DNA from: Escherichia phage FL18 | Sequence record: PP400780 | Direction: 5' to 3' (one strand) | Length of the DNA stretch: 64,000 nucleotides | In this document: positions 8,242 through 54,960 of the stretch, in pieces | How the letters are laid out: each line of letters opens with the position of its first letter | Position numbering within the stretch: the first letter of the stretch is position 1 | Notes under the pieces: generated by a model | Database searches by the model: none | What the model was told of the DNA's origin: nothing | What the model saw: the letters and a program-made list of their open reading frames with translations, nothing else | Translations under genes and position numbers: made by a program

Positions 8242-8715
8242 ATGTTATTATCAGGCGCAAAATATAAAGAAGAAAAACAAAAATTTTATGATGCACAGAA
8301 TGGTAAGTGTCCTATTTGCCACCGTGAATTAGACCCTGATGTTCAAGGTAACCATCTTGACCACGACCACGAATTAAACGGGCCAAAAGCCGGTAGAGTT
8401 CGTGGATTACTCTGTAATCTGTGCAACGCAGCAGAAGGTCAAATGAAGCATAAGTTCAACCGTTCCGGTCTTAAAGGACGTGGTGTCGACTACCTCGAAT
8501 GGCTTGAAGCTCTTCTTGTTTATTTGAAACAAGATTATTCTGATAATAATATCCATCCTAATTTTGTTCCAGACAAAACTAAAGAGTTCTCAAGACTAGG
8601 TAAAGAGGAAATGATGGCTGAGATGCTTCAAAGAGGATTTGAATATAATGAATCTGACACCAAAACACAGTTAATAACTTCATTTAAGAAGCAGCTTAGA
8701 AAGAGTTTAAAATGA
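8242..8715 (+). CDS. 49: endonuclease VII (Holliday junction resolvase)
   Basis: 157 aa, near-identical to recalled T4 gp49 (MLL.GK.YKEEKQKFYDAQNGKC ... HLDHDHELNGPKAG). Confidence 0.9.
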   Translation: MLLSGAKYKEEKQKFYDAQNGKCPICHRELDPDVQGNHLDHDHELNGPKAGRVRGLLCNLCNAAEGQMKHKFNRSGLKGRGVDYLEWLEALLVYLKQDYSDNNIHPNFVPDKTKEFSRLGKEEMMAEMLQRGFEYNESDTKTQLITSFKKQLRKSLK

Positions 8716-9380
8716 ATGTAGTATATAAACTATCATTTATTAGTAGAATTAATGCTAAAACCCCGCCATATTATTATATTGGAAGTAAAACCAATTGCAC
8801 TTTTGACGGAACGAATATTATTGATAAAAATGGTAAATTTTATTATTCGTCTTCGTCATCTTCCGAATTTCAAAAAGCTTTGTTGAAAGAAACACCGAAA
8901 GTTGAAATATTATATTTTCAATTAGTCGGAGATGAACAAATAACTAGCATTGAAGCTGAATTTCAAAAGAATATAGAAAAAGATATATGGAATAAAGAGT
9001 ATTTTAATTTAGCATATGCTAATGGTCAATTTACAACGTACGGTGTTTCTCCTTCTAAAGAAACTAGAGAAAAGCAATCAATAACCATGATTAAAAGAAA
9101 TCGTAATAAAGGTAAAAATCATGGATTTTATGGAAAGCATCATACTAATTTAGCCAGAAAGAAAATATCAGAAGCTTCTAAAAAATACTGGAAAGAAAAT
9201 CCACATCATGGATTTTCGCACACAAAGGAAGCTAAAATTAAAATTGGAATTTCATCTTCTATCAGGCATAAAGGAAGTGGAAATCCGATGTACGGCGTAA
9301 AACCTTGGAAAACTCCTAGCGTTGTTCCATGGAATTTAGGTAAAATGAAAGAAATGGTAAAACGAGTAAAACATGCATAG
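8712..9380 (+). CDS. Seg-like homing endonuclease (GIY-YIG-like N-terminus, NUMOD-like repeats)
   Basis: VYKLSF ... YYYIGSK motif; repeated K/R-rich helix motifs; GNPMYG; paralogous to ORF 18918..19451. Confidence 0.55.
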   Translation: MNVVYKLSFISRINAKTPPYYYIGSKTNCTFDGTNIIDKNGKFYYSSSSSSEFQKALLKETPKVEILYFQLVGDEQITSIEAEFQKNIEKDIWNKEYFNLAYANGQFTTYGVSPSKETREKQSITMIKRNRNKGKNHGFYGKHHTNLARKKISEASKKYWKENPHHGFSHTKEAKIKIGISSSIRHKGSGNPMYGVKPWKTPSVVPWNLGKMKEMVKRVKHA

Positions 9381-10203
9381 GTATTATATAATTTATAAAA
9401 TAACAAATATAATTAATTCAAAGGAATATATCGGTGCGCATAGCACCGATAACATAAATGATGGTTATATGGGATCAGGAACATTGATTCGTGCCGCTTT
9501 ATTAAAATATGGTAGAAAAAATTTTAATAAAGAAATTTTACATGTTTTTGATAATGAAAAACAAATGTATGATAAAGAAGCTGAACTCGTAACCGAAGAG
9601 TATTGTCTAAAAGAAAATACATATAATATTAAACCTGGTGGAAAAGGTGGAACTGCCTATGAACAGACACTTGAACATCGCCGCAAAAATAGTTTAGCAA
9701 ATAAAGGTAAAAAGAGAACAGAAGAAACTAAAATAGCTATTTCACGTGCTTTAAAGAAATATAAACGTACGCCAGAGCATCAAGCAAATTTAAATAAAGC
9801 CGTAAGCATAGCTATGAAGCGAAAAGATGTTAGAAGTAAATTAGCTGGAGAGCGGTCTGAGAAAGATAAATTACCTATATCAAACGGTGTTAAAAAATAT
9901 TACAATTCTTTGAGTGAAGAAGAACGCGAACTTCATCGCAAGCGAATTATTGAAGGTAAAAAGAATTCTCCCATGTCATTGGAATCTAGACAAAAGCTTT
10001 CAAAAGCTTTAAAAGGACTTCAAGTTGGTTCAAAAAATCCAATGTATGGAAAAATTTCTCCAACTAGCAAAACCGTTTCAGTTGACGGTATTAAATATGA
10101 TTCAATTAAAAAGTGCTCAAATGCCATAAAAGTTTCTAGACATCTTATACTAAAACGCTGTAATTCTACTGATGAAGCTTGGAAAAATTGGATATTATTA
10201 TGA
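9373..10203 (+). CDS. GIY-YIG homing endonuclease (Seg-like)
   Basis: YYIIYKITNIINSKEYIGAHST (GIY ... YIG), downstream N/E residues, NUMOD3-like repeats (TEETKIAISRALK; SLESRQKLSKALKG; NPMYGK). Confidence 0.75.
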   Translation: MHRYYIIYKITNIINSKEYIGAHSTDNINDGYMGSGTLIRAALLKYGRKNFNKEILHVFDNEKQMYDKEAELVTEEYCLKENTYNIKPGGKGGTAYEQTLEHRRKNSLANKGKKRTEETKIAISRALKKYKRTPEHQANLNKAVSIAMKRKDVRSKLAGERSEKDKLPISNGVKKYYNSLSEEERELHRKRIIEGKKNSPMSLESRQKLSKALKGLQVGSKNPMYGKISPTSKTVSVDGIKYDSIKKCSNAIKVSRHLILKRCNSTDEAWKNWILL

Positions 10204-10670
10204 ATTATGACAGAATATACCCGTGTTGCTTTGTGAATGGCCCTGGATGCAGGGTCGTTCTTTTCGTTACAGGTTGTTTGCATAAATGCGAAGGGTGTTA
10301 TAATAAATCAACATGGAATGCTAGAAATGGTGTTCCATTCACTGGTGAAACACTAGAACAATTAATTGAATGTTTGAATAATGATTATATAGAAGGATTG
10401 ACTATAACCGGAGGTGACCCTCTTTATCCTGATAACAGAGACGTGATTCACTCTGTGGTTCAAACTATTAAAAATCTTTATCCCAATAAAAGCATTTGGT
10501 TGTGGACAGGATATAAGTTTGAAGATATTAAACAACTAGAAATGCTTAAATATGTTGATGTTATTATTGATGGGAAGTATGAGAAAAATCTTCCGACTAA
10601 AAAGCTGTGGCGAGGATCAGATAATCAGCGACTTTGGTCAAATACCGATGTGGTGTGGAAACATGATTAA
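10200..10670 (+). CDS. nrdG: anaerobic ribonucleotide reductase activating protein (radical SAM)
   Basis: 156 aa from ATG at 10200 (MNYDRIYPCCFVNGPGCRVVLFVTGCLHKCEGCYN); matches recalled T4 NrdG. Confidence 0.85.
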   Translation: MNYDRIYPCCFVNGPGCRVVLFVTGCLHKCEGCYNKSTWNARNGVPFTGETLEQLIECLNNDYIEGLTITGGDPLYPDNRDVIHSVVQTIKNLYPNKSIWLWTGYKFEDIKQLEMLKYVDVIIDGKYEKNLPTKKLWRGSDNQRLWSNTDVVWKHD

Positions 10671-22556: not shown

Positions 22557-25268
22557 ATGAAAGAATTTTACTTAACGGTTGAACAGATTGGTGATTCAAT
22601 TTTTGAACGTTACATCGATTCTAATGGCCGTGAACGTACTCGTGAAGTAGAATATAAACCATCACTGTTTGCTCATTGTCCAGAAAGTCAGGCTACGAAA
22701 TATTTCGATATCTACGGTAAGCCGTGTACTCGTAAGTTGTTCGCTAATATGCGTGATGCCTCCCAATGGATTAAACGCATGGAAGATATCGGACTTGAAG
22801 CACTTGGCATGGACGATTTCAAATTGGCGTATTTGTCTGACACTTATAACTATGAAATCAAATACGACCATACAAAAATTCGTGTGGCTAACTTCGACAT
22901 CGAAGTAACATCTCCGGATGGGTTCCCTGAGCCATCACAAGCAAAACATCCGATTGATGCTATCACCCATTATGACTCAATTGACGACAGGTTCTACGTA
23001 TTTGATCTATTGAATTCTCCATATGGTAATGTAGAAGAATGGTCTATTGAAATCGCTGCTAAGCTTCAAGAACAAGGCGGTGATGAAGTTCCATCTGAAA
23101 TTATCGATAAAATCATTTATATGCCGTTCGATAACGAAAAAGAATTGTTGATGGAATATCTCAACTTCTGGCAACAGAAAACTCCTGTCATTTTGACTGG
23201 ATGGAACGTTGAGTCATTCGATATTCCATATGTGTATAACCGAATCAAGAATATTTTTGGCGAATCTACTGCGAAACGTTTATCACCGCATCGTAAAACT
23301 CGTGTTAAAGTTATCGAAAACATGTATGGTTCTCGTGAAATCATTACATTGTTCGGTATCTCTGTTCTTGATTACATTGACCTTTACAAAAAATTCTCTT
23401 TTACCAATCAACCGTCGTATTCTCTGGATTACATTTCAGAATTTGAATTGAACGTTGGTAAACTGAAATATGATGGCCCTATTTCTAAGCTTCGTGAAAG
23501 CAATCACCAACGATATATAAGCTATAACATCATCGACGTGTATCGTGTATTGCAAATTGATGCTAAGCGTCAGTTCATCAACTTGAGTTTGGACATGGGT
23601 TATTATGCTAAGATACAGATTCAATCTGTGTTTAGCCCAATTAAAACATGGGATGCTATTATTTTTAATAGCCTTAAAGAGCAGAACAAGGTGATTCCAC
23701 AAGGTCGTTCTCACCCGGTTCAACCTTATCCCGGCGCTTTTGTTAAGGAACCTATTCCAAATCGATACAAATATGTAATGAGTTTCGACCTTACATCTCT
23801 GTATCCAAGTATTATTCGCCAAGTGAATATTAGCCCGGAAACAATAGCAGGAACGTTTAAAGTAGCTCCATTGCATGATTATATTAACGCAATCGCTGAA
23901 CGTCCTTCAGATGTGTACAGTTGCTCTCCTAACGGCATGATGTATTATAAAGACCGTGATGGTGTAGTTCCAACTGAAATCACTAAGGTCTTTAATCAAC
24001 GTAAAGAACATAAAGGTTACATGCTTGCAGCTCAACGTAATGGTGAAATAATTAAAGAGGCATTGCATAATCCTAATCTTTCTGTTGACGAACCATTAGA
24101 TGTTGATTATCGTTTCGACTTCAGCGATGAGATTAAAGAAAAGATTAAAAAGTTGTCTGCTAAATCTCTTAATGAAATGTTGTTTAGAGCTCAACGTACT
24201 GAAGTTGCAGGTATGACTGCACAAATTAACCGTAAATTGCTTATCAACTCGCTTTATGGTGCACTTGGAAACGTTTGGTTCCGTTATTACGATTTGCGTA
24301 ATGCAACTGCAATCACAACATTCGGGCAAATGGCTTTACAGTGGATTGAACGTAAAGTTAATGAATATCTGAATGAAGTTTGTGGTACAGAAGGTGAAGC
24401 TTTCGTTCTATATGGTGATACAGACTCCATTTATGTATCTGCAGATAAAATTATTGATAAGGTTGGTGAATCTAAATTCCGTGATACCAACCATTGGGTA
24501 GACTTCTTAGATAAGTTTGCACGTGAACGTATGGAACCTGCTATTGATAGAGGTTTCCGTGAAATGTGCGAATACATGAACAATAAACAACACTTAATGT
24601 TCATGGACCGAGAAGCTATCGCTGGGCCTCCGCTTGGTTCTAAAGGTATTGGCGGATTTTGGACTGGTAAGAAACGTTATGCATTAAACGTGTGGGATAT
24701 GGAAGGTACTCGTTACGCTGAGCCTAAACTCAAAATCATGGGTCTAGAAACTCAGAAATCTTCGACCCCTAAAGCAGTACAGAAAGCTCTTAAAGAATGT
24801 ATTCGTCGTATGCTTCAAGAAGGTGAAGAATCATTACAAGAATATTTTAAAGAGTTTGAAAAAGAATTCCGTCAATTGAATTATATTAGCATCGCGTCGG
24901 TATCTTCTGCGAATAACATTGCTAAATATGACGTAGGTGGATTCCCTGGTCCTAAATGCCCGTTCCATATTCGTGGAATTCTGACATATAACCGAGCTAT
25001 CAAAGGTAATATCGATGCACCACAAGTTGTAGAAGGTGAAAAAGTATATGTTCTGCCTTTACGTGAAGGAAACCCATTCGGTGATAAATGTATCGCATGG
25101 CCTTCTGGTACTGAAATCACAGATTTAATTAAAGACGATGTACTTCATTGGATGGACTACACTGTTCTCCTTGAGAAGACATTTATTAAACCACTTGAAG
25201 GATTCACATCAGCAGCGAAACTCGATTATGAGAAGAAAGCATCTCTGTTCGATATGTTCGATTTTTGA
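22557..25268 (+). CDS. 43: DNA polymerase gp43 (family B, RB69-type)
   Basis: 903 aa; exonuclease motif FDIEV, polymerase motifs DLTSLYPSII and YGDTDS; N-terminus matches recalled RB69 gp43. Confidence 0.97.
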   Translation: MKEFYLTVEQIGDSIFERYIDSNGRERTREVEYKPSLFAHCPESQATKYFDIYGKPCTRKLFANMRDASQWIKRMEDIGLEALGMDDFKLAYLSDTYNYEIKYDHTKIRVANFDIEVTSPDGFPEPSQAKHPIDAITHYDSIDDRFYVFDLLNSPYGNVEEWSIEIAAKLQEQGGDEVPSEIIDKIIYMPFDNEKELLMEYLNFWQQKTPVILTGWNVESFDIPYVYNRIKNIFGESTAKRLSPHRKTRVKVIENMYGSREIITLFGISVLDYIDLYKKFSFTNQPSYSLDYISEFELNVGKLKYDGPISKLRESNHQRYISYNIIDVYRVLQIDAKRQFINLSLDMGYYAKIQIQSVFSPIKTWDAIIFNSLKEQNKVIPQGRSHPVQPYPGAFVKEPIPNRYKYVMSFDLTSLYPSIIRQVNISPETIAGTFKVAPLHDYINAIAERPSDVYSCSPNGMMYYKDRDGVVPTEITKVFNQRKEHKGYMLAAQRNGEIIKEALHNPNLSVDEPLDVDYRFDFSDEIKEKIKKLSAKSLNEMLFRAQRTEVAGMTAQINRKLLINSLYGALGNVWFRYYDLRNATAITTFGQMALQWIERKVNEYLNEVCGTEGEAFVLYGDTDSIYVSADKIIDKVGESKFRDTNHWVDFLDKFARERMEPAIDRGFREMCEYMNNKQHLMFMDREAIAGPPLGSKGIGGFWTGKKRYALNVWDMEGTRYAEPKLKIMGLETQKSSTPKAVQKALKECIRRMLQEGEESLQEYFKEFEKEFRQLNYISIASVSSANNIAKYDVGGFPGPKCPFHIRGILTYNRAIKGNIDAPQVVEGEKVYVLPLREGNPFGDKCIAWPSGTEITDLIKDDVLHWMDYTVLLEKTFIKPLEGFTSAAKLDYEKKASLFDMFDF

Positions 25269-25308: not shown

Positions 25309-25944
25309 ATGAAAACTACTCCTATTACTATCGCTATTGACGCAATCATAAAACAAGCTTCTTCTTTGGCCGCTATGGCCAAAGTAATTAGTCAAAACCC
25401 TGCTCGTTATAATGCTATTCTAGAAACTCTTCGACGCCCTGGACTTAGTAATTATGAAAGCCGGGTAATTATTACAGGTGTTGGTAAGAATGCTAATATC
25501 GCAACTAAAGCTTCCGAGACATTTGCTTCACTAGGTATTCCTAGCATGTATTTGAACACTGGGCATTATTCTCACGGTGATGCAGGATTCATTGCGCCTA
25601 ATGATGTGTTGATTCATATTAGTCGTTCTGGTAAGACTGAAGAAATGATAGGTGTTGCTAAACATCTTCGTATGATTCGTCCTCAGGTTAAACAGATTCT
25701 GTTACATTGTAACCCAGACATTCCACAAGAATACGAAGCTCTTTTTGATTATACGTTCTGTACTGGCATCGCGGTAGAGGTTGATGAGAATTCTCTGGCT
25801 CCGACTATGTCCACTACATTGTTGTTAGCGCTTATCGATACGTTTGCTATCAACCTTTCGTCTGAACGTGGATTTACCTCTAATGATTTCCTTAAGTTCC
25901 ATCCAGGCGGTGCACTAGGTGCCATGTTACGAGGCGAACAATGA
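25309..25944 (+). CDS. SIS-domain sugar-phosphate isomerase (arabinose-5-phosphate isomerase KdsD/GutQ-like, no CBS domains)
   Basis: ITGVGKNANIATK ... HGDAGFIAPNDVLIHISRSGKTEE ... APTMSTTLLLALID ... FHPGGALG align with recalled KdsD SIS-domain motifs. Confidence 0.7.
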   Translation: MKTTPITIAIDAIIKQASSLAAMAKVISQNPARYNAILETLRRPGLSNYESRVIITGVGKNANIATKASETFASLGIPSMYLNTGHYSHGDAGFIAPNDVLIHISRSGKTEEMIGVAKHLRMIRPQVKQILLHCNPDIPQEYEALFDYTFCTGIAVEVDENSLAPTMSTTLLLALIDTFAINLSSERGFTSNDFLKFHPGGALGAMLRGEQ

Positions 25945-26084
25945 AAGCAATAACAATAGGACTTTTACTATTGATGCTTGTCATGACTATCTACTGGAGC
26001 TTAACGGCTCCGGTAATGATTCCAACACTTGTAATTGGATGGATTATGATTGGACTACAAGCAAAGTATGAATGCTTTAACTAG
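25941..26084 (+). CDS. small membrane protein (47 aa)
   Basis: manual translation MKAITIGLLLLMLVMTIYWSLTAPVMIPTLVIGWIMIGLQAKYECFN; ATGA overlap with SIS gene stop; below ORF-track cutoff. Confidence 0.4.
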   Translation: MKAITIGLLLLMLVMTIYWSLTAPVMIPTLVIGWIMIGLQAKYECFN

Positions 26085-26097
26085 AATAGTGTACAAT
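26070..26097 (+). promoter_or_regulatory. putative MotA-dependent middle promoter (MotA box AATGCTTTA, -10 TACAAT 12 nt downstream)
   Basis: aatgctttaactagaatagtgtacaat upstream of nucleotidyltransferase-kinase gene. Confidence 0.4.
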
Positions 26098-26125
26098 ACT
26101 CCTACTTACCAATGAGGACTTTAAC

Positions 26126-27811
26126 ATGAAAAAAGCTGTTATTCTTGGTGCTGGACTGGCAACTCGTTTGTATCCAATAACGCATCATATTCCTAAGGTG
26201 CTTGTTAACTATAAACAAGATACTATTCTGAGCAATTTGTATACAATTTATTCTGACCTTGGCGCAGATGAAATTATTGTAGTAGTTCATTCAAAATTTG
26301 CTGAAACTGTTCGAGCTTATTGTGAACAAGAAGGGTTCAATGTGACTATTCGTACAGTTGATGAAGCGTATGGTTCTGCTTATGCTCTTGCTAAATTACA
26401 CAAAGATTTAGACGGCCATAATGTAATTGTTAACTGGTGTGATATTATTCCTGATTTTGGTTCATGGTCTTGGAATGTTAACGCAATCTATGTTAAGGGT
26501 GACGAATGTCGATATAATTTCGACGGTGAAAATATCACTAACGTAGGTTCAACAGGTGGTAATGTTGTAGGAATTTATCAGTTCAAAGACTGGGAATTCT
26601 ATATGGGTTCTACTGATGAGGAAATTCATGAATACTGCAAAGGACGTGATTTCGTAGAATTCCTTTACGGCAGCGCATTCAATAAATCAGAGCTTATGAA
26701 TCTAATTGATTTAGGTGATATGCCTAAACTTGAAAAAGCTCATGAAGTTCGTGAACTTAATCGTAGTTTTAATGCAGTTGAAATTGGTGAAGAAACTGTA
26801 ACTAAATTCGCATTAACCGAACAGGGTCGAGCTCTTCAGAAAGATGAGATTTCGTGGTATCTTAAAGTGAAATCAGATTCAGTTCCTCAGTTAGTTTCTG
26901 TTAATGAAAATAACTTTGAAATGGAACGCATTAAAGGTAAGCCTGCATTTGAATATATTAAATCCAAATCAAGTCTTGCTCGTCCACAAATTGTTGATGC
27001 AATTTTAGATGCACTGAAATTCAGCACAGACACTTATTTTGTAAGTCCTGAAACTGTTCGTCGTGATTTCACTAAAGAATTCTATACGAAAGTTATTGAT
27101 CGTTGTGAAAGCATTCAACCATTGATTGATTCATTTGGTAAAATCACACATGTGAACTACACTAAGATTGGACGTCTGAAGCCAATGCTGAAACAAGCTT
27201 TAGAACACCTCATTCGTTATCATAACCGTTCTCAGGGACAGTACTCTGTTATTCACGGTGACCCGAACTTCAGTAATACTATGATTACTGATAATGGCGA
27301 AGTCAAGTTTATCGACCCTCGTGGATATTTTGGTGAAACCAAGATTTACGGGCCAAAATTGTACGATGAAGCTAAAGTGCTTTATGCTGTTTCAGGTTAT
27401 GATGAATTCAATGCTAATCCGACCTGGGGGCAGTTTACTATTGATGAAACAACTTGTAATGTGACTATTAACATCAATCCATTAGTTTACAAATATAGAA
27501 AGATGAGTTCGTTTAACGAGTATCATCATTTGGCAGTGGCAATTATCTGGATTGCATTAGGCGGTTATTTCAAGAATAATCCACTTAAAGCGGTAGCCGC
27601 ATATTATAAAGGTATGGAACTTCTGACTAAGCAATTACGTAACATGGGCCGTGTACTTCAGGACGGCTCTATTAGTTATGACGTAGCAGAACCTGTAACG
27701 GCTACTCTGATTACAAAAAATCCTGGTAAATGGGTACTAACTGATAAAGAAACTGGTGTTTCCTATCGTCCAATCGGTGGCGATATCACTCATCAATGGG
27801 AACGAATCTAA
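26126..27811 (+). CDS. bifunctional sugar-1-phosphate nucleotidyltransferase / kinase-like fusion protein
   Basis: N-terminus MKKAVILGAGLATRLYPITHHIPKVLV (sugar nucleotidyltransferase G-rich loop); C-terminal region has protein-kinase-like HGDPNFSNTMI (catalytic loop) and FIDPRGYFG (DFG-like) as in APH/choline-kinase-type small-molecule kinases. Confidence 0.65.
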   Translation: MKKAVILGAGLATRLYPITHHIPKVLVNYKQDTILSNLYTIYSDLGADEIIVVVHSKFAETVRAYCEQEGFNVTIRTVDEAYGSAYALAKLHKDLDGHNVIVNWCDIIPDFGSWSWNVNAIYVKGDECRYNFDGENITNVGSTGGNVVGIYQFKDWEFYMGSTDEEIHEYCKGRDFVEFLYGSAFNKSELMNLIDLGDMPKLEKAHEVRELNRSFNAVEIGEETVTKFALTEQGRALQKDEISWYLKVKSDSVPQLVSVNENNFEMERIKGKPAFEYIKSKSSLARPQIVDAILDALKFSTDTYFVSPETVRRDFTKEFYTKVIDRCESIQPLIDSFGKITHVNYTKIGRLKPMLKQALEHLIRYHNRSQGQYSVIHGDPNFSNTMITDNGEVKFIDPRGYFGETKIYGPKLYDEAKVLYAVSGYDEFNANPTWGQFTIDETTCNVTININPLVYKYRKMSSFNEYHHLAVAIIWIALGGYFKNNPLKAVAAYYKGMELLTKQLRNMGRVLQDGSISYDVAEPVTATLITKNPGKWVLTDKETGVSYRPIGGDITHQWERI

Positions 27812-28197
27812 TGCACCGTGTAGAAAACATGCTTAATCTTTGTTTTGATGTCGATGATTGTATAACAGAGTGGAATAACAATCGTGATTACGTGAACTTC
27901 AAACCTGACGTCGAAATGGTGTCTGCCATTAATGCCCTGTATGATGCAGGGCATACCATAACGCTTTACACTGCTCGCGGTATGAAGTCAGTAGGTCCTG
28001 GACGTATAGCAATTGACATTCTCCCAAGTCTGATTCAGAACTTGGAAAACATTGGTTTGAAGTACCATAATTTGCTAACACATAAACCAGTATATGATTG
28101 GATTATCGACGACAAAGCTATGCGTCCTGACGAATTCAAAGCTCTTATGAATAAAGGCGAATTCGAAACATTTAAATCGTATAAACCGAATCTATAA
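27811..28197 (+). CDS. HAD-superfamily phosphatase-like protein (start uncertain: 27796, 27811 or 27829)
   Basis: N-terminal LCFDVDDCIT (motif I-like DxD), TITLYTARG (motif II-like), WIIDDK (motif IV-like). Confidence 0.5.
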   Translation: MHRVENMLNLCFDVDDCITEWNNNRDYVNFKPDVEMVSAINALYDAGHTITLYTARGMKSVGPGRIAIDILPSLIQNLENIGLKYHNLLTHKPVYDWIIDDKAMRPDEFKALMNKGEFETFKSYKPNL

Positions 28198-28253: not shown

Positions 28254-29414
28254 ATGAATACTTTTAAAATTGGAACGAATTTTGATTTAGCTCTTCTTGA
28301 TAAAATCGTAGAGCTCAATAAAACTTATCCTAATAGCTTGATAAACGAAGTATACGGCTCTACAAGAGAAATGGCTTTTGTAGCAGCCAGACCTGATTTT
28401 AGGCTTCCTGACGTTGACAAAAAGATGTTAGAAGATTACGTTAAACGTTGTAACGAATTAGGTATTTGCTTTAACTATACACTCAACACGATAAATCCTG
28501 GTTCAAAAAGAGAACTAGTTGAGTGGAAGAAGAAAGCTATTCAGGATTATGTTCAGTATCTTTGGTCAATAGGTGTATGGCGTATTACTATCGCTAACCC
28601 TGTTGTTATGGAAATTGTTCGTGAAGTCAATAAAGACATTGAGATTGAAGTTTCAACAATTCTACATGTCGATGCTGTAACTCAAATCAAATACTTGCAT
28701 GACCAGTATAATATCAAAAAGGTCTGCTGTGGAATTCATAAGAACCGTTCAGTTTCTTTCCTGAAGCGTGCAGCAGAGTTTTGCAATAAGAACAATATAA
28801 TATTTGAAGTTCTTGTAAATGAGTTCTGTTCTAATGCTGGTAAAGGGTATACAACACATTGTAGCTATCGTGACTCTTGCTATATTTTCCATAGTACTGA
28901 TGTTACAGCTGATGATGCTAAATCCTTAAACGGATATCCTATGCAGCACTGTATTAAAGCTCGTGATACAGACCCATTTAACTGGTTGAGAACTCGTTTT
29001 GTTCGTCCTCAAGATTTGAAACTTTATAATGATATTGGTATCACTCAATTCAAAGTTTCAGGACGTACAGGTAGCACAGACTACATTTTGAAAGTTCTTG
29101 AAGCATACGCTTCTGAAAAGTTTGAAGGTAATTTGTTAGAACTGTGGAAGCCTTTAGAGACTATTTTCACTCTTGAAAACGAAACTGAGTTTTCACATAC
29201 AGTAAATATTGAAACCTCTTTGTTAGATGGCTTTTTAGAAAAAAGGTGGTTCAGACATCCAGATTTCGATTGTGCTAATGAAATCTGCGGGACGACGTGT
29301 ACATATTGTGAAAGATATTATAAACGTCAATTATCTAAAAACGGGTTAGCAGAAAACTCTATATCTATTATTGATATAACTAACTCTGATGACGCTTTGA
29401 GGTACCCGGAATGA
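28254..29414 (+). CDS. Cys-rich protein of unknown function (candidate metallo/Fe-S enzyme)
   Basis: 386 aa from ATG at 28254; Cys clusters CCGIH, FCSNAGKGYTTHCSYRDSC and C-terminal CANEICGTTCTYC (contains CX3CX2C). Confidence 0.5.
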   Translation: MNTFKIGTNFDLALLDKIVELNKTYPNSLINEVYGSTREMAFVAARPDFRLPDVDKKMLEDYVKRCNELGICFNYTLNTINPGSKRELVEWKKKAIQDYVQYLWSIGVWRITIANPVVMEIVREVNKDIEIEVSTILHVDAVTQIKYLHDQYNIKKVCCGIHKNRSVSFLKRAAEFCNKNNIIFEVLVNEFCSNAGKGYTTHCSYRDSCYIFHSTDVTADDAKSLNGYPMQHCIKARDTDPFNWLRTRFVRPQDLKLYNDIGITQFKVSGRTGSTDYILKVLEAYASEKFEGNLLELWKPLETIFTLENETEFSHTVNIETSLLDGFLEKRWFRHPDFDCANEICGTTCTYCERYYKRQLSKNGLAENSISIIDITNSDDALRYPE

Positions 29415-29650
29415 TTTCTAGAAAAACTTTTAATCACCAACTTAATGAAGAGATTTTGACTACGAAACTGAACACTAACGAACAAATTCTTAAAAAGGCC
29501 CTTATGGGCCTGTTTGAAACCAAAGCGGCTAAAGTGATTAAAGGACCTGTTCAATTAGAATATTACGCTGATACATTTCTTCATAGTGTTCTTGGAAGTA
29601 TCGATGCTGAAGCTTTACGTTATATCAACATTGCCAAGAAATTCAAATAA
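29411..29650 (+). CDS. hypothetical protein (79 aa)
   Basis: ATGA-overlapping ORF at end of sugar cassette. Confidence 0.45.
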   Translation: MISRKTFNHQLNEEILTTKLNTNEQILKKALMGLFETKAAKVIKGPVQLEYYADTFLHSVLGSIDAEALRYINIAKKFK

Positions 29651-29692: not shown

Positions 29693-30409
29693 ATGGGGAA
29701 ACATAACACAATGAAATATATCAAAGCCGCAGATTTTCAAACCGCATTTAAAGCAGTCAATCGTGAAATTTTAGAAAACCCGGAATTCGTAACTGATTCT
29801 CGTATTGGACGTTGTAATGAAATTGGGTCTATGACAGTAGTTGTTGACACTCCATCATCATTCAAAATGACTGACCCACGTATTAACCGCATCTCTTATG
29901 AATATGCCGAAGACTTCTGGAAGTTTATGATTTCTGGTGGTACCAACGCAGAAGAAGCGTTTAAGGCATATCCTAATGTCGCTAAATTTATTTCTAAACC
30001 AAAATCAGATGTTTTGCCGGCGAACTTCAATACTTTCTATGGTCCTCGCATTGCGGCCCAATTACCAGCTCTTCTAAAAGAACTTAAAGAGAAGCCTAAC
30101 TCTCGAAGAGTTGTGTTCCAAATTCTAGAAAGTTCTGATCAGGCTTTGCTTGATTCGGATGAAACGCTTGAATATCCATGTACTGACTCAGTGACTTATT
30201 ATATTCGTGATGGTAAGCTTTATACCCACTGTCATATGCGTTCTCAGAACTGTGCTGTTGTTATGCAGTTGGATTTTTATCTCCAAGGAAAATTACTTCA
30301 TTATATCGCTAACGAATGCGGTGTAGAAGTTGGTGATTATACTCATACCATGGTAAGTGCCCATGTGTTTGAACGTGATTTTGATTATGTTAAAGGATTC
30401 CTTGACTAA
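29693..30409 (+). CDS. 42: deoxynucleotide hydroxymethylase, thymidylate-synthase family (T4 gp42 dCMP hydroxymethylase-like)
   Basis: YPCTDSVTYYIRDGKLYTHCHMRSQNCAVVMQLDFY matches the TS/dCH catalytic core (PC nucleophile, MRS motif); synteny downstream of 43. Confidence 0.75.
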   Translation: MGKHNTMKYIKAADFQTAFKAVNREILENPEFVTDSRIGRCNEIGSMTVVVDTPSSFKMTDPRINRISYEYAEDFWKFMISGGTNAEEAFKAYPNVAKFISKPKSDVLPANFNTFYGPRIAAQLPALLKELKEKPNSRRVVFQILESSDQALLDSDETLEYPCTDSVTYYIRDGKLYTHCHMRSQNCAVVMQLDFYLQGKLLHYIANECGVEVGDYTHTMVSAHVFERDFDYVKGFLD

Positions 30410-31308
30410 TGGCTATTTTCCGCGTACCAATCTTGAGTATGCGGTCTTATGAAACTGGACAGTATGCTATCCTTAAGGATGGCAACTTCCAACTTCATTT
30501 GCACCGTGCTAATCCGGGTGATGTGATTACATATCCACGTAATGCATCTGATATTAAAGAATGCGAACGTCTTTTCCCAGAATTTAAGTTTGTTCCATTA
30601 TGGTATAAAGATAACGCTTATAACACTCGTAAATATTTCTGGTCTGAAAATGAATTTGTGGTTGATTCATTAATTGCTTATTATGATTGCGATTTTCTAA
30701 TCACAGATATAACTGGATATGACGGCGCTTTTGATGTAGAATTCAATTTCAATATCACTGCAGACCCTAATAAACCACGTTTTTATATTGACGAATTCTT
30801 AAAAACCGACATGTTGTCGGTTAATCGTTCAATCCAAACAACTGTGTTGAATGAACGTCAAAAAGAAGTGCTGGTTAACGCAGGTGCAGATGGTAATAAG
30901 ATTATCGTAACGCAGAAAGTTATACGTCCTTCCATCATGCAGCGTCTTGTAGGTGATTTGGCTCCTATTTATCTAGATGGTATTTTTCATCCATTTCGAA
31001 TTAGTGACCCGTGCTATCGTTTTGAACAAGTGGTTGAATGTGCAATTCAATTAGGTCAACCGCTTTATATAACCGATCCAAATAATAGCTTTGACAGAAA
31101 TAAGTATCCTGAAGAAGCGTTGATTCGAATTTTTAAACCAACTAAAACTGAGTACTATCAAATTCTTAAAGGACGTCCGAAGATTCAATATTTCGAAAAT
31201 CCTGAAGAGGTATTTCATCCAGGTCTTGGTGAGTTCATCTACTTTAATGCTTTAATTTCTTCACCGTATAATATACCTAAATATGAAGATGTCGTAATCG
31301 AGGAATAA
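30409..31308 (+). CDS. hypothetical protein occupying the T4 beta-glucosyltransferase locus (candidate DNA sugar transferase)
   Basis: 299 aa ORF between gene 42 and uvsX; no similarity to recalled T4 beta-GT. Confidence 0.45.
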   Translation: MAIFRVPILSMRSYETGQYAILKDGNFQLHLHRANPGDVITYPRNASDIKECERLFPEFKFVPLWYKDNAYNTRKYFWSENEFVVDSLIAYYDCDFLITDITGYDGAFDVEFNFNITADPNKPRFYIDEFLKTDMLSVNRSIQTTVLNERQKEVLVNAGADGNKIIVTQKVIRPSIMQRLVGDLAPIYLDGIFHPFRISDPCYRFEQVVECAIQLGQPLYITDPNNSFDRNKYPEEALIRIFKPTKTEYYQILKGRPKIQYFENPEEVFHPGLGEFIYFNALISSPYNIPKYEDVVIEE

Positions 31309-31309
31309 A

Positions 31310-31858
31310 ATGGCTAAAATTATTTTAGTAGATGGCCCGGATAATGCTGGTAAAACAACTTTCATTAATGACATAATGGAAATTAGTGAAAGATATGTAA
31401 AAATTGATTTCCCTAAACGAACAGTTGATGGACGTTTCGATGTTAAGTCTCGAAATGAAGTTGGCTGTTTTGAAACGATGTTGAATTATTTAGACCCTAC
31501 TAAGATTTATCTGTTAGACCGTGGATATATTAGTAACTGGGTTTACGGACGTATTCGACAAGATGCGGACTCGGTTCTTGACGTTTATGAACAGGATTAT
31601 ATTCGTCTTTGCCAAAACCATGATGTGTTCACAATTATTTTAACACGTAACGAAATGACTGAAAGTTTTGAAGACGACCTTATTACTTTGTCTTCATTCG
31701 GTTTTAATACAGTCATTTCACATTTTGAAGAGTTTGCAATTCATAACAAAATCCAAACGTATCAATTACTTAATCATGATGGTGCTAACAAAGTTATAGG
31801 ATTTAATGCAAGCGAACGTAATGGTTTGATTACAGAAATCATCAAATGGGCTCGTTAA
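31310..31858 (+). CDS. P-loop nucleoside/nucleotide kinase-like protein
   Basis: Walker A GPDNAGKTT near N-terminus; LLDRGYISNWVYG resembles the DR(Y) motif of TMK/dNK-type kinases. Confidence 0.5.
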   Translation: MAKIILVDGPDNAGKTTFINDIMEISERYVKIDFPKRTVDGRFDVKSRNEVGCFETMLNYLDPTKIYLLDRGYISNWVYGRIRQDADSVLDVYEQDYIRLCQNHDVFTIILTRNEMTESFEDDLITLSSFGFNTVISHFEEFAIHNKIQTYQLLNHDGANKVIGFNASERNGLITEIIKWAR

Positions 31859-39933: not shown

Positions 39934-40455
39934 ATGGCACACTTTAACGAATGTTCACAACTTATTTCTGGTGTTGATAAAGCAGAAGAAGCTTATTTTA
40001 ATGCTCTGATTCACGAAGATAAAGACCCACTGCAGGTAATGCTTGATATGCAGAAATCTTTACAGGTTCTTCTGGCAAATGACAAGCCTGAACATAACAA
40101 ACATCCTGATGAATTGGCTACTGCTGGTGATGTTGTTGATTGGCTGCGTAATCAGAAAGATTATATTGATGATGAATTTCGTGAACTGCTGACTTCACTT
40201 GGCGGTATGAGCAATGGTGAAAAAGCTGCCAGCAGTGTATGGAAGCCGTGGAAGGCACAACACGCTGAATATCGAAATCGTCGTATCGATGAACTGTCTC
40301 CTGAAGACCAGCTTGAAATTAAATTTGAAATGATTGATATTCTGCATTTCGTTCTAAATATGTTCCAAGGTCTAGGACTTTCTGCTGAAGAAATCTTCAA
40401 ACTGTATTATCTGAAAAACCAACACAACTTTGAACGTCAGGATAATGGTTACTAA
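39934..40455 (+). CDS. 56: dCTP pyrophosphatase gp56 (MazG-like dCTPase/dUTPase)
   Basis: MAHFNECSQLISGVDKAEE ... matches recalled T4 gp56; ATG at 39934 preferred over upstream TTG. Confidence 0.8.
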   Translation: MAHFNECSQLISGVDKAEEAYFNALIHEDKDPLQVMLDMQKSLQVLLANDKPEHNKHPDELATAGDVVDWLRNQKDYIDDEFRELLTSLGGMSNGEKAASSVWKPWKAQHAEYRNRRIDELSPEDQLEIKFEMIDILHFVLNMFQGLGLSAEEIFKLYYLKNQHNFERQDNGY

Positions 40456-52106: not shown

Positions 52107-53207
52107 ATGAAAGTTATGTTTATCCCATCTCGCGCAGTCCCATTTAACCCAGAACGTGTACAAGGTGGTCTTGAAGCAGTACATTTAAATGTGTTGAAAT
52201 ATCTTGTGTCCATCGGTGCTGATATTGATTATATCGGCTTTGATAATGACACGTTTGGTGACTGGAAGGTTAATCATCATCCTGTTGGTCATCTGACTAA
52301 ATTCAGTCTAGGTATGAGTTATACTATGGCTCGTAAGATTGTTGAACTAGCCGGCATTAATGAGTACGATTTCGTTGTTACAATGGAACCGACCAAACTA
52401 ACCGTTCAGGCAATTAAAGACGCAGGTCTCTCTAAAGTTCATAAGAATTTTATGGCAACACCATTTGAACCAGTATCTCGTGGCATTGTTCAAATTTGGG
52501 ACCAGACTATTCAAATTCATAAGAACGGTGGTAAGAGTTATGCTCCTACTAAAGCCTTCCGTGAATTTGAACGCAAATATTGTTATATGACTTCAGGTCT
52601 GACTGACAAAATTGATTATGATTATTGGCGAGCAAATCCGTTGTTTGAAGCCGAAGATTATCCGGTTATTTGTTTGAATGATAAACCTGAAGTTCTTCCG
52701 GCGACGGATCTGATTATTAGTGCACAACGTTATGACACTAAAATGCGTCGTACTGATGTTGCTCTTGAAGCGATTAAAGCACTAGGCGAAAATGGTGCAG
52801 GATACTGTCCAAGCAAATGGGCGCCACCGGCTAAATATCCTGTTATTATTGATGCTCCACACAGTGAAATTATGGAACGTCTTAAAACAGCTAAAGCACT
52901 TATTAATACGTGTCCTGACACAGGTACGGTAGAGAATAGTTCTATTGAAGCCATCTCTAAAGGTGTCCCTGTAATCCAGTTAGTTTTTAAGGATTATCCT
53001 CATGCGACATTTGAATACGACCCAGATACTGTGCGTGTAGAAATTGATTCCTCTACTCCTAAGAAAGAAGTAGTTGCGCTTTACACAAAAGCTGTATTAG
53101 AATTCACTGACACATACGAAGCTCGAGTTAAACGTGCTGAAGCTGTATGGAAGAAGTATAACCGAGATGCAGTTGTTGCGATGTGGGATAAAATCTTCAC
53201 AGCGTAA
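52107..53207 (+). CDS. putative glycosyltransferase (GT-B fold, GT4-like)
   Basis: N-terminus MKVMFIPSRAVPFNPERVQGGLEAVHLNVLKYL and C-terminal ENSSIEAISKGVPVIQ resemble GT4 N-terminal and EX7E-region motifs; judged by eye. Confidence 0.45.
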   Translation: MKVMFIPSRAVPFNPERVQGGLEAVHLNVLKYLVSIGADIDYIGFDNDTFGDWKVNHHPVGHLTKFSLGMSYTMARKIVELAGINEYDFVVTMEPTKLTVQAIKDAGLSKVHKNFMATPFEPVSRGIVQIWDQTIQIHKNGGKSYAPTKAFREFERKYCYMTSGLTDKIDYDYWRANPLFEAEDYPVICLNDKPEVLPATDLIISAQRYDTKMRRTDVALEAIKALGENGAGYCPSKWAPPAKYPVIIDAPHSEIMERLKTAKALINTCPDTGTVENSSIEAISKGVPVIQLVFKDYPHATFEYDPDTVRVEIDSSTPKKEVVALYTKAVLEFTDTYEARVKRAEAVWKKYNRDAVVAMWDKIFTA

Positions 53208-53512: not shown

Positions 53513-54325
53513 ATGATTATTGAAACGGCTAAAGAAACGATTATTGGTTCTGGTGGTAAAAGCACAGCATTTACTATTCAAGGCAATAGCAAAGTTTATA
53601 AGATTTTGTCTAATGACCTTTATACAAACAAAGAATTGGCTTGTGTACGTGAATTAATCACAAACTGTATCGATGGACAAATTCTTAATGGTTGCACTGA
53701 TAAGTTTATTGTTCAGGCTCCAGGTCGTTTAGACCCACGTTTTGTAGTTCGAGACTTTGGTCCTGGTATGAGTGATTTCACCATTCGAGGTAATGACGAA
53801 GAGCCAGGAATCTATAACTCATATTTTGCTTCAACTAAAACATCGAGTAACGATTTCATTGGTGGATTCGGACTCGGCTCTAAAGCTCCACTAGCATATA
53901 CCGATACGTTTAACATTACTTCTTATCATAATGGTGAAGTTCGTGGTTATGTAATTTATCAAGATGACAGTGGTCCACAGATTAAGCCAACCTTCGTAGA
54001 TAAGATGGGTCCTGATGACCGGACCGGCGTTGAAGTAGTTGTGCCTGTTAACCCAGAAGATTTTGAAAAGTTCGCATCCGAAATTGCATATGTTATGCGT
54101 CCTCTAGGTGATATTGCAGAAGTTCGCGGTGTTAAAGATATCAAATACTTTCCTGAATTCGATGATGTTTATTTAGCCAAGGAAGCTCCATGGGGTGAAC
54201 GTGGTAATATCATGGCTGTTTATGGTGGTATTGTATATCCAATCGGAAGTGTTATTAAAGAACAAACCTGGATGATGACGCGATGCACACTACGGCTGGT
54301 TAGAATGCAACGAAGTTGTTATTGA
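53513..54325 (+). CDS. rIIA: rIIA-like protein, N-terminal GHKL ATPase domain (apparently truncated/frameshifted)
   Basis: GHKL N-box ELITNCID, G1 box DFGPGM, G2 box GGFGLGSK; only 270 aa before stop versus about 725 aa in T4 rIIA. Confidence 0.6.
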
Positions 54326-54467
54326 AATCCCACCGGTAGATGCAGAATATCTTGAAGAAGGAGACCGCATTTATTTTGGCGAACTACACATCAGAGGTAT
54401 CTATGGTAAAGACGAACTTGGGGCTGTTGAGGCTGAAGAGTCTTCCGACATTTATCCTGTCGAATGA
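54279..54467 (+). other. open frame-0 segment plausibly continuing rIIA after a +1 frame change
   Basis: translation [40 protein letters not shown]... resembles recalled T4 rIIA region ...NWLSIRNEVNYIKFP... Confidence 0.35.
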
Positions 54468-54960
54468 GTTTTTGACTAGCGAAATGAAGGTTAAGATCGC
54501 TGATACTGCTCGGTACTCGTTGAAACAAGATCCAGACCAAAACAAAGAAGATGTAGTTCGACGTTGTAAGGTTGCGGTCTTTGCAGAGTATGTAGTAGCA
54601 AATTGGCTAGACGGATATGTTAATAAAGGTATTGAAGACGTAGAAGACCCGTACACGTATGCATGGGACGTGTTAGCCCATCCCAAGTATTGTGGAATTC
54701 GTGTAGAAGTCAAGACACACCAGATAGATTCTAAATGGATTTCGGTTACCACAGGATACAGTGGTGATTATCCGGGTGGTAATGGAATCAATATAGGGCC
54801 CTTCCTTAATCATCGAGTCGCAGATTGCATTATTATATTAGATGTCAAAGAAACCTCACCTGACGTCTTCTCTTATTCTATAAAGTTCGTGGGAGACCAT
54901 GAAGACCTAAAGAAAATCGTCCGTAAGAGCAACTACAACGGGTGGTATCTTCATCTTTAA
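54340..54960 (+). CDS. hypothetical protein in a third frame (possible rIIA C-terminal remnant or separate gene; weak PD-(D/E)xK-like signature)
   Basis: AWDVLAHPKYCGIRVEVKT contains D ... E-x-K pattern; first ATG downstream of the frame-0 stop is at 54481. Confidence 0.4.
   Translation: MQNILKKETAFILANYTSEVSMVKTNLGLLRLKSLPTFILSNEFLTSEMKVKIADTARYSLKQDPDQNKEDVVRRCKVAVFAEYVVANWLDGYVNKGIEDVEDPYTYAWDVLAHPKYCGIRVEVKTHQIDSKWISVTTGYSGDYPGGNGINIGPFLNHRVADCIIILDVKETSPDVFSYSIKFVGDHEDLKKIVRKSNYNGWYLHL

Follow-up and report, generated by a model that had tools for sequence, protein, structure and literature searches.

The window analyzed here, a 64,000-nucleotide (64-kb) stretch of Escherichia phage FL18 (sequence record PP400780), carries between DNA polymerase gene 43 and uvsX a gene that resembles thymidylate synthase (TS), and the locus raises the question of which reaction its product catalyzes. 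A sequence-only reading of this DNA had named the gene, at 29693-30409, a gp42-type hydroxymethylase and had called the hmC pathway complete. We conclude, with a probability of roughly 93%, that it encodes the Mosigvirus 5-hydroxy-2'-deoxycytidylate synthase, which hydroxylates dCMP by means of flavin and O2 and feeds the production of arabinosyl-5-hydroxycytosine DNA. Identity, residues, and gene content were computed here; the chemistry comes from published experiments, done on the RB69 protein (99% identical) and on a crystallised homolog that is ~98% identical. The function of the gene is already known from published work (2025-2026).

Fold, specificity residue, and folate pocket

The open reading frame (ORF) begins with ATG and encodes 238 amino acids followed by a stop codon.

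29693..30409, + strand: assigned as 5-hydroxy-dCMP (5hodCMP) synthase, TS fold, RB69 gp48 ortholog (236/238 identity, residue table, published function); key residues Cys163 (nucleophile), Glu160, Arg183/Ser184, Asn186 (signature), and Asp194 (cytosine specificity)

The protein matches Pfam Thymidylat_synt (PF00303) with E=2.3e-15 and 56.9 bits (cutoff 24.3) and PHROG 160 'thymidylate synthase' with E=7e-47; the resemblance to TS is therefore not due to chance. The motifs YPCTDSV, MRS, and QLDFY occupy residues 161-167, 182-184, and 192-196, and these scores, together with Cys163 and Arg183/Ser184, bear out the TS-family core with PC nucleophile and MRS motif that had been read from the letters.

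Is the protein then an ordinary thymidylate synthase that converts dUMP to dTMP? This is the name borne by its best Pfam, PHROG, and NCBIfam matches and used in many phage records. However, the NCBIfam TS equivalogs all score far under their cutoffs (e.g., 68 vs 174 bits), the residues at E. coli ThyA positions 177, 143, and 169 are Asp not Asn, Glu not Leu, and Asn not Asp, and the C-terminal folate-closing segment is missing: in the alignments, the protein stops at about ThyA residue 220. We give this function next to no weight.

The active site was compared in a six-sequence MAFFT alignment, a sixteen-sequence MAFFT alignment, and a BLASTP pair with T4 gp42. In all 3, Cys163 lines up with the catalytic cysteines of T4 gp42 (Cys148) and E. 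coli ThyA (Cys146), in a column that is invariant, and Asp194 lines up with T4 gp42 Asp179 and ThyA Asn177. The Asp of QLDFY thus lies where a manual alignment to T4 gp42 had put it, and an Asp at the pyrimidine-specificity position upholds the choice of dCMP rather than dUMP as substrate. Asp194 predicts the dCMP substrate correctly; it does not indicate the nature of the added group. The sequence-only reading had proposed a multiple alignment with thymidylate synthases and hydroxymethylases as a check, and that alignment returns Asp, not Asn, at the specificity position. The Asp-versus-Asn test cannot part hydroxymethylases from hydroxylases because both carry Asp.

The ThyA active-site columns were tabulated in sixteen proteins. 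Eleven are from the protein's own clade (FL18 included), sampled from Mosigvirus, Winklervirus, Marfavirus, Tegunavirus, Proteus phages, an Acinetobacter Lazarusvirus, and an Agrobacterium Pootjesviridae phage; 4 are T4-type gp42 proteins (T4, STP4-a, KP179, and Aes012).

ThyA Cys146 column: own clade Cys; four T4-type gp42 Cys
ThyA Arg166/Ser167 column: own clade Arg/Ser; four T4-type gp42 Arg/Ser
ThyA Tyr94 column: own clade Tyr; four T4-type gp42 Tyr
ThyA Asn177 column: own clade Asp; four T4-type gp42 Asp
ThyA Leu143 column: own clade acidic (Glu); four T4-type gp42 acidic (Asp)
ThyA Asp169 column: own clade Asn (Asn186 in FL18); four T4-type gp42 Asp
ThyA Gly173 column: own clade Val (Val190 in FL18); four T4-type gp42 Gly
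ThyA Trp80 column: own clade no Trp in the corresponding segment; four T4-type gp42 Trp

The clade and the T4-type gp42 proteins have their catalytic and specificity residues in common and differ in the folate pocket. The Asp169 position holds Asn in every aligned clade member (11/11) and Asp in every T4-type gp42 (4/4). A search for Trp in residues 86-116 of the FL18 protein, the region where the equivalents of Trp80/Trp83 are expected, found none. The equivalent of Glu58 varies with the alignment: it is Phe75 or Asp74, or Glu73 if a 2-residue gap is allowed. An Asn in the Asp169 column has been published as the mark of 5hodCMP synthases and was validated by experiment with nine diverse homologs (Lee et al. 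NAR 2026, PMC13326640). The diagnostic residue is Asn186 at this position, not Asp194, and to read hmC from the letters whenever Asp replaces Asn177 gives an entire clade of phage enzymes the wrong name.

RB69 gp48, its published chemistry, and the arabinosylation cluster

Over 3.8 kb around the gene, FL18 matches many coliphages of the genus Mosigvirus (RB69-like, T4-type) at 98-99.5% identity. The FL18 protein and RB69 gp48 are identical at 236 of 238 residues (99.2%), and the 2 substitutions (Asn85 in FL18 for Asp, Val107 for Ala) both lie outside the published active-site residues. Identity is ~98% to the chains of PDB 9IQC/9IR2/9IQU, with five differences; those seen against 9IQC beyond the 2 RB69 ones are at positions 17, 31, and 87. 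These structures are deposited under the name 'thymidylate synthase', and most database records give the protein as either thymidylate synthase or dCMP hydroxymethylase. Identity within the clade is 69-99%, with 69% to the Lazarusvirus (DLP3-type) homolog, as against 24-26% to the four gp42 proteins.

The chemistry of RB69 gp48 has been worked out by experiment. Together with a phage dNMP kinase in E. coli, it gives rise to 5-hydroxy-dC in DNA; in the same assay, both retention time and mass set its product apart from the 5-hydroxymethyl-dC of T4 gp42; 18O2 labelling in vivo traces the oxygen to O2; and the purified protein carries FMN, such that flavin, not methylene-THF, is used (PMC13326640). 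Other 5hodCMP synthases include DLP3 gp80 and the enzyme of phage HY126 (PMC13326640). For the latter, according to the account given in PMC13326640, He et al. (Nat Chem Biol 2026) present a crystal structure with flavin and an in vitro reconstitution.

The DNA of these phages has been analyzed as well. RB69 and related phages carry mono- and di-arabinosyl-5-hydroxycytosine, not hmC (PMC13390438, PMC13326640). In the Mosigvirus NicPhage, which shares 98.4% nucleotide identity with FL18 over the cluster, HPLC/MS detects 5-ara-dC and 5-ara-ara-dC, without a methylene bridge (PMC13390438). An earlier study had given arabinosyl-hmC for RB69 (Thomas et al. 2018, PMC6024577), a report now called erroneous (PMC13390438). 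We infer that FL18 DNA carries arabinosyl-5-hydroxycytosine.

These data bear on the designation as a T4-type dCMP hydroxymethylase that makes 5-hydroxymethyl-dCMP with methylene-THF. The alignment of Asp194 with T4 Asp179, of Glu160 with T4 Asp145, and of Cys163 with Cys148 speaks for it, as do the T4 gene 42 slot between gene 43 and uvsX, the presence of a gp56 dCTPase, the records that say dCMP hydroxymethylase, and the assumption of hmC in RB69 by Thomas et al. Yet identity to T4 gp42 is 25% by BLASTP; tblastn against Tequatrovirus gp42 reaches E-values of only 1e-4 to 1e-5; and the best 60 PDB matches listed include ordinary thymidylate synthases and MilA and no T4 gp42 structure. The four T4-type enzymes keep Asp, Gly, and Trp where the FL18 protein has Asn186, Val190, and no Trp in residues 86-116, and the 99% identical RB69 enzyme yielded 5hodC, unlike the 5hmdC of T4 gp42 (PMC13326640). 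A gp42-type hydroxymethylase is thus very improbable, and that label, set against 99.2% identity to the RB69 gp48 hydroxylase, does not hold.

The 5-hydroxy-dCMP synthase assignment is matched by the gene content around it. From upstream to downstream, the order is gene 43, isomerase, 47-aa ORF, bifunctional nucleotidyltransferase/kinase, phosphatase, U32, 79-aa ORF, TS homolog, glycosyltransferase, kinase-like gene, and uvsX. It is the gp55-to-gp45 cluster of RB69, and the FL18 proteins share 92-100% identity with their RB69 counterparts; the isomerase, bifunctional enzyme, phosphatase, both glycosyltransferases (GT1 and GT2), and kinase are 98-100% identical.

22557..25268, + strand: gp43 DNA polymerase, upstream border of the cluster (99.9% identical to RB69 gp43, synteny)
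25309..25944, + strand: arabinose-5-phosphate isomerase, RB69 gp55 ortholog (NCBIfam KpsF/GutQ 5e-32, KdsD 2e-30; 98% to RB69)
25941..26084, + strand: conserved 47-aa ORF, RB69 gp54 (PHROG 3610 6.8e-27; 100% to RB69)
26126..27811, + strand: bifunctional sugar-1-phosphate nucleotidylyltransferase/sugar kinase, RB69 gp52:53, HY126 AfhE-like (99.4-99.5% to RB69 ORFs 53 and 52)
27796..28197, + strand: HAD-type sugar phosphatase, RB69 gp51, AfhF-like (NCBIfam capsule biosynthesis phosphatase 1.9e-13; 98.5% to RB69)
28254..29414, + strand: U32-family protein, RB69 gp50 (Pfam Peptidase_U32 7.5e-11; 99.5% to RB69)
29411..29650, + strand: 79-aa ORF, RB69 gp49 (PHROG 8601 3e-49)
30409..31308, + strand: DNA arabinosyltransferase 1, RB69 gp46:47 (98-99% to RB69 ORFs 47 and 46; assignment from PMC13326640 Table 1)
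31310..31858, + strand: P-loop nucleotide kinase, thymidylate-kinase-like, RB69 gp45 (PHROG 761 6.8e-45; 98.4% to RB69 gp45)
39934..40455, + strand: gp56 dCTPase/dUTPase, MazG-like, 173 aa (PHROG 173, Pfam dUTPase_2)
52107..53207, + strand: DNA arabinosyltransferase 2, RB69 gp3 (98.9% to RB69p003; assignment from PMC13326640 and PMC13390438)

Two of these genes are intact in FL18 where RB69 has paired ORFs: 26126-27811 is one 561-aa ORF that covers RB69 ORFs 53 and 52, its N-terminal 110 aa matching nucleotidyltransferase families, and 30409-31308 is a single 299-aa ORF that covers RB69 ORFs 47 and 46. In the published scheme, the isomerase (RB69 gp55) starts the synthesis of the arabinose donor, the bifunctional enzyme (RB69 gp52:53) makes UDP-arabinofuranose in a pathway that is partly predicted, and RB69 gp45 is given as a 'nucleotide kinase' (PMC13326640). 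The second arabinosyltransferase gene lies apart, between topoisomerase gene 39 and rIIA. The gene 56 dCTPase noted earlier is present as described: it is 71% identical to T4 gp56 over its full 173 aa and 96.5% identical to RB69 gp56. A PDB sequence search with it gave no match. We also looked through the 64-kb window for another gp42 of the T4 type and for a beta-glucosyltransferase and found neither; the sole gp42 match is the 29693-30409 protein, at 25% identity.

Because of the RB69 gp48 orthology, Asn186, and the full RB69 arabinosylation cluster, we assign the FL18 pathway to 5-hydroxycytosine, not hmC. The statement that the hmC pathway is complete is better replaced by a 5-hydroxycytosine/arabinose pathway that is largely present, given that RB69 gp48 makes 5-hydroxy-dC (PMC13326640).

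The proposed pathway would run as follows. Cys163 would attack C6 of dCMP, with Asp194 selecting cytosine through its N3/N4 face. C5 would then be hydroxylated by flavin (FMN), with O2 as the source of oxygen and no one-carbon unit from methylene-tetrahydrofolate. The gp56 dCTPase would drain dCTP and supply dCMP to the synthase. The 5hodCMP would be phosphorylated by a phage dNMP kinase encoded outside the window (a T4-gp1-type dNMP kinase was not found within the 64 kb) and subsequently by host NDP kinase, and gp43 would put 5hodCTP into DNA. After replication, the glycosyltransferases at 30409-31308 and 52107-53207 would modify the 5-OH with one or two arabinofuranosyl groups, and the UDP-arabinose donor would come from the isomerase, kinase/pyrophosphorylase, and phosphatase encoded at 25309-28197.

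In this family, the fold of a folate enzyme has been switched to flavin/O2 hydroxylation, feeding arabinosyl-5-hydroxycytosine DNA. The chemistry of 5-hydroxycytosine bears on restriction evasion, Type IV restriction targeting, and phage therapy.

A U32-family protein and a possible anaerobic route

Two ORFs upstream of the TS homolog lies the U32-family gene (28254-29414). Profile-profile comparison (hhalign) with E. coli UbiU/UbiV/RlhA/TrhP gives a probability of 92.7%; single-sequence hhalign and hmmsearch gave no significant placement in any one of these four E. coli subfamilies, and a PDB sequence search returned no match. Glu185, Cys203, and Cys209 align with UbiU Glu161, Cys169, and Cys176, and all 3 are invariant in 7 phage orthologs; the phage protein also has an invariant C-terminal CX4CX3CX2C cluster of its own. 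No other protein in the comparison is as well conserved: FL18 and LC53 share 82% identity in the U32 protein and 79% in DNA polymerase, the latter over part of the LC53 polymerase. Its carriers comprise 221 phage records, all at least 80% identical, from phages of Enterobacterales and Shewanella only. More distant homologs were not found at E<=1e-3, and the gene is absent from the otherwise equivalent cluster of an Acinetobacter phage (Kimel locus).

The slot that separates the U32 gene from the TS homolog was inspected in 17 related U32-carrying loci. In LC53 and PWKp16 (Winklervirus and Marfavirus), it holds a chorismate mutase gene, with Pfam CM_2 matches of 1.7e-11 and 6.7e-10, above cutoff; in about 12 further loci of the 17, the slot ORF is assigned by its sequence likeness to these two chorismate mutases rather than by individual Pfam scan. 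In Winklervirus, Tegunavirus, and locus L024, the chorismate mutase is fused to or sits beside a small gp49-type protein. In Mosigvirus, including FL18, the slot holds the gp49-type protein alone, and the FL18 window contains no chorismate mutase gene.

We considered whether the 79-aa ORF is itself a diverged chorismate mutase, and we reject this. It has no Pfam match even at E<=10, it is 12-20% identical to phage chorismate mutases, and in loci L017, L020, and L024 it is a separate gene beside chorismate mutase.

Published work connects the E. coli relatives of the U32 protein with hydroxylation that does not depend on O2. RlhA is needed for 5-hydroxycytidine (ho5C2501) in 23S rRNA, where Fe-S clusters and prephenate are required (PMC5727448). 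TrhP is the prephenate-dependent, O2-independent counterpart of the O2-dependent TrhO in the formation of tRNA ho5U34 (PMC6599085). UbiU/V act in ubiquinone synthesis under anaerobiosis, with prephenate as the oxygen donor (PMC10990095). By analogy, we tentatively infer that the phage U32 protein might provide a second, O2-independent and prephenate-dependent route to 5-hydroxycytosine, an idea that we hold to be possible but somewhat less probable than its opposite. In this hypothesis, it would act as a pyrimidine C5 hydroxylase under anaerobiosis. The idea draws on the O2 requirement of the TS-fold enzyme, which is sufficient in air, and on RB69 DNA, which bears no extra group that would require another enzyme. 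It also draws on the Glu/Cys/Cys motif, the chorismate mutase genes in the neighbouring slot of related phages, the strong conservation of the U32 protein, and its limitation to phages of Enterobacterales and Shewanella. Such a route may mirror the host pairs TrhO/TrhP and UbiI-H-F/UbiU-V, and it may let phages of facultative anaerobes keep full cytosine replacement when the flavin/O2 enzyme is idle.

A bolder form holds that the 29693-30409 hydroxylase is not the sole or main source of 5-hydroxycytosine in the oxygen-poor gut, where the U32 protein would take the hydroxyl from prephenate. Consistent with this are the membership in the U32 family with a conserved Glu/Cys/Cys motif, the chorismate mutase gene that most related genera carry in the slot before the TS homolog, the occurrence of the U32 gene in phages of facultative anaerobes only, and the chemistry documented for RlhA, TrhP, and UbiU/V (PMC5727448, PMC6599085, PMC10990095). 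Against it stand the lack of a chorismate mutase gene in the FL18 window, the aerobic sufficiency of RB69 gp48 alone (PMC13326640), and the tentative classification of the U32 protein by Lee et al. as a 'sugar or heterocycle reductase' (PMC13326640). We judge this form unlikely, a step below the second route as such.

Two further searches touch the subject. A phage anaerobic ribonucleotide reductase was considered as a sign of anaerobic growth and set aside: nrdG is present in the 64-kb window and nrdD is absent from it. In the searchable literature, we found no paper that links phage U32 proteins to prephenate. If true, no virus before would have been known to use prephenate-dependent U32 hydroxylation, the U32 protein would be the first such enzyme in DNA precursor synthesis, and the route would explain DNA modification by these phages in the anoxic gut.

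Comparison with known systems

The U32 protein shares with RlhA, TrhP, and UbiU/UbiV the Pfam U32 domain and the motif of a Glu and two Cys, and in related phages its gene is linked to prephenate supply through that of chorismate mutase. It differs in its own C-terminal Cys cluster, and its relationship to any of the E. coli paralogs is distant.

For the 29693-30409 protein, the comparison extends across the TS fold. Among distant PDB matches, the CMP 5-hydroxymethylase MilA (PDB 5JNH, 5B6D) gives the longest alignment (residues 14-237, E ~4e-11), and MilA is the top structural neighbour of RB69 gp48 according to Lee et al. (PMC13326640). MilA differs in its substrate, the ribonucleotide CMP, and in the group that it transfers, a folate-derived hydroxymethyl. 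E. coli ThyA has the same fold, and the equivalents of Cys146, Arg166/Ser167, Arg126/Arg127, Tyr94, and His207 are kept in FL18; identity to it is ~20%, with the replacements N177D, L143E, and D169N, a lost C-terminal segment, and another substrate, cofactor, and product.

T4 gp42 (EC 2.1.2.8) shares the TS fold, the catalytic Cys, the Asp that specifies cytosine, and an acidic residue where ThyA has Leu143, as well as the dCMP substrate, the genomic slot flanked by gene 43 and uvsX, and the gp56 dCTPase partner. The FL18 protein differs from it by Asn at the Asp169/171 position, by Val for Gly173, and by the lack of an equivalent of Trp80, which is Trp82 in T4; by analogy with RB69 gp48, it would use flavin and O2 as opposed to methylene-THF, and its product would lack the CH2 bridge. 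The closest known system is RB69 gp48 itself: the FL18 protein has the same length, start, set of Cys163, Glu160, Asn186, and Asp194, neighbours, and gene order, and it is set apart by two conservative substitutions, at positions 85 and 107.

Neighbors of the thymidylate synthase homolog

The U32-family gene lies 5' of the thymidylate synthase (TS) homolog, with one small gene in between. We compared this interval (window 28254-29650) with related phage loci L008, L009, L012-L021, and L024. In the majority of related genera, the small gene is a chorismate mutase, assigned by Pfam CM_2 in the 2 loci that were scanned (LC53 and PWKp16) and by resemblance in the remaining loci; in the window, it encodes a 79-aa protein that carries no chorismate mutase assignment. 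This neighborhood suggests a prephenate-dependent, O2-independent route of hydroxylation.

Two further members of the cluster for arabinosyl-5-hydroxycytosine (5hoC) DNA are as follows:
25941-26084, 47-aa open reading frame (ORF), kept in both clusters checked (RB69 and LC53)
31310-31858, thymidylate-kinase-like P-loop protein, the counterpart of RB69 gp45

The gp45-type protein is kept in 5hoC clusters from Mosigvirus through to Acinetobacter phages, and it differs from the gp1-type dNMP kinase of the published assays. The 47-aa ORF resembles the translated intergenic region between T4 genes 42 and imm (57% identity over a 30-residue match), which hints that it may be a remnant reflecting common ancestry of the 2 loci.

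Intact reading frames and a doubtful annotation

Two enzymes are each encoded by a single intact ORF in the window and are split in the RB69 reference:
26126-27811, bifunctional enzyme (RB69 ORFs 52/53)
30409-31308, glycosyltransferase 1 (RB69 ORFs 46/47)

A published account (PMC13326640) states that the RB69 splits are sequencing errors; the intact window counterparts support this view.

A protein of Agathobaculum phage AB434P3 (locus L032, 2911-3573) is annotated as "deoxyuridylate hydroxymethyltransferase." In the alignment, it carries Asp at the position of Asn177 in Escherichia coli ThyA and also at position 169. By the residue logic applied to the TS homolog, dCMP would be its expected substrate, so the label may be wrong.

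The rIIA and nrdG regions

At 53513-54960, rIIA is truncated to a 270-aa ORF, and homology to full-length rIIA stops near 54288; phiE142 and RB69 carry approximately 2.5 kb here that the window lacks. The next gene encodes a DenB-like endonuclease IV (206 aa, PHROG 1360), and no rIIB was found within the 64-kb window.

Between endonuclease VII and nrdG (window 8242-10670) lie 2 ORFs:
8712-9380, homing-endonuclease-like
9373-10203, homing-endonuclease-like

The large subunit of anaerobic ribonucleotide reductase, nrdD, has no match in the whole 64-kb window, whereas phage NRG-P0074 carries nrdD at the spot occupied here by these ORFs.
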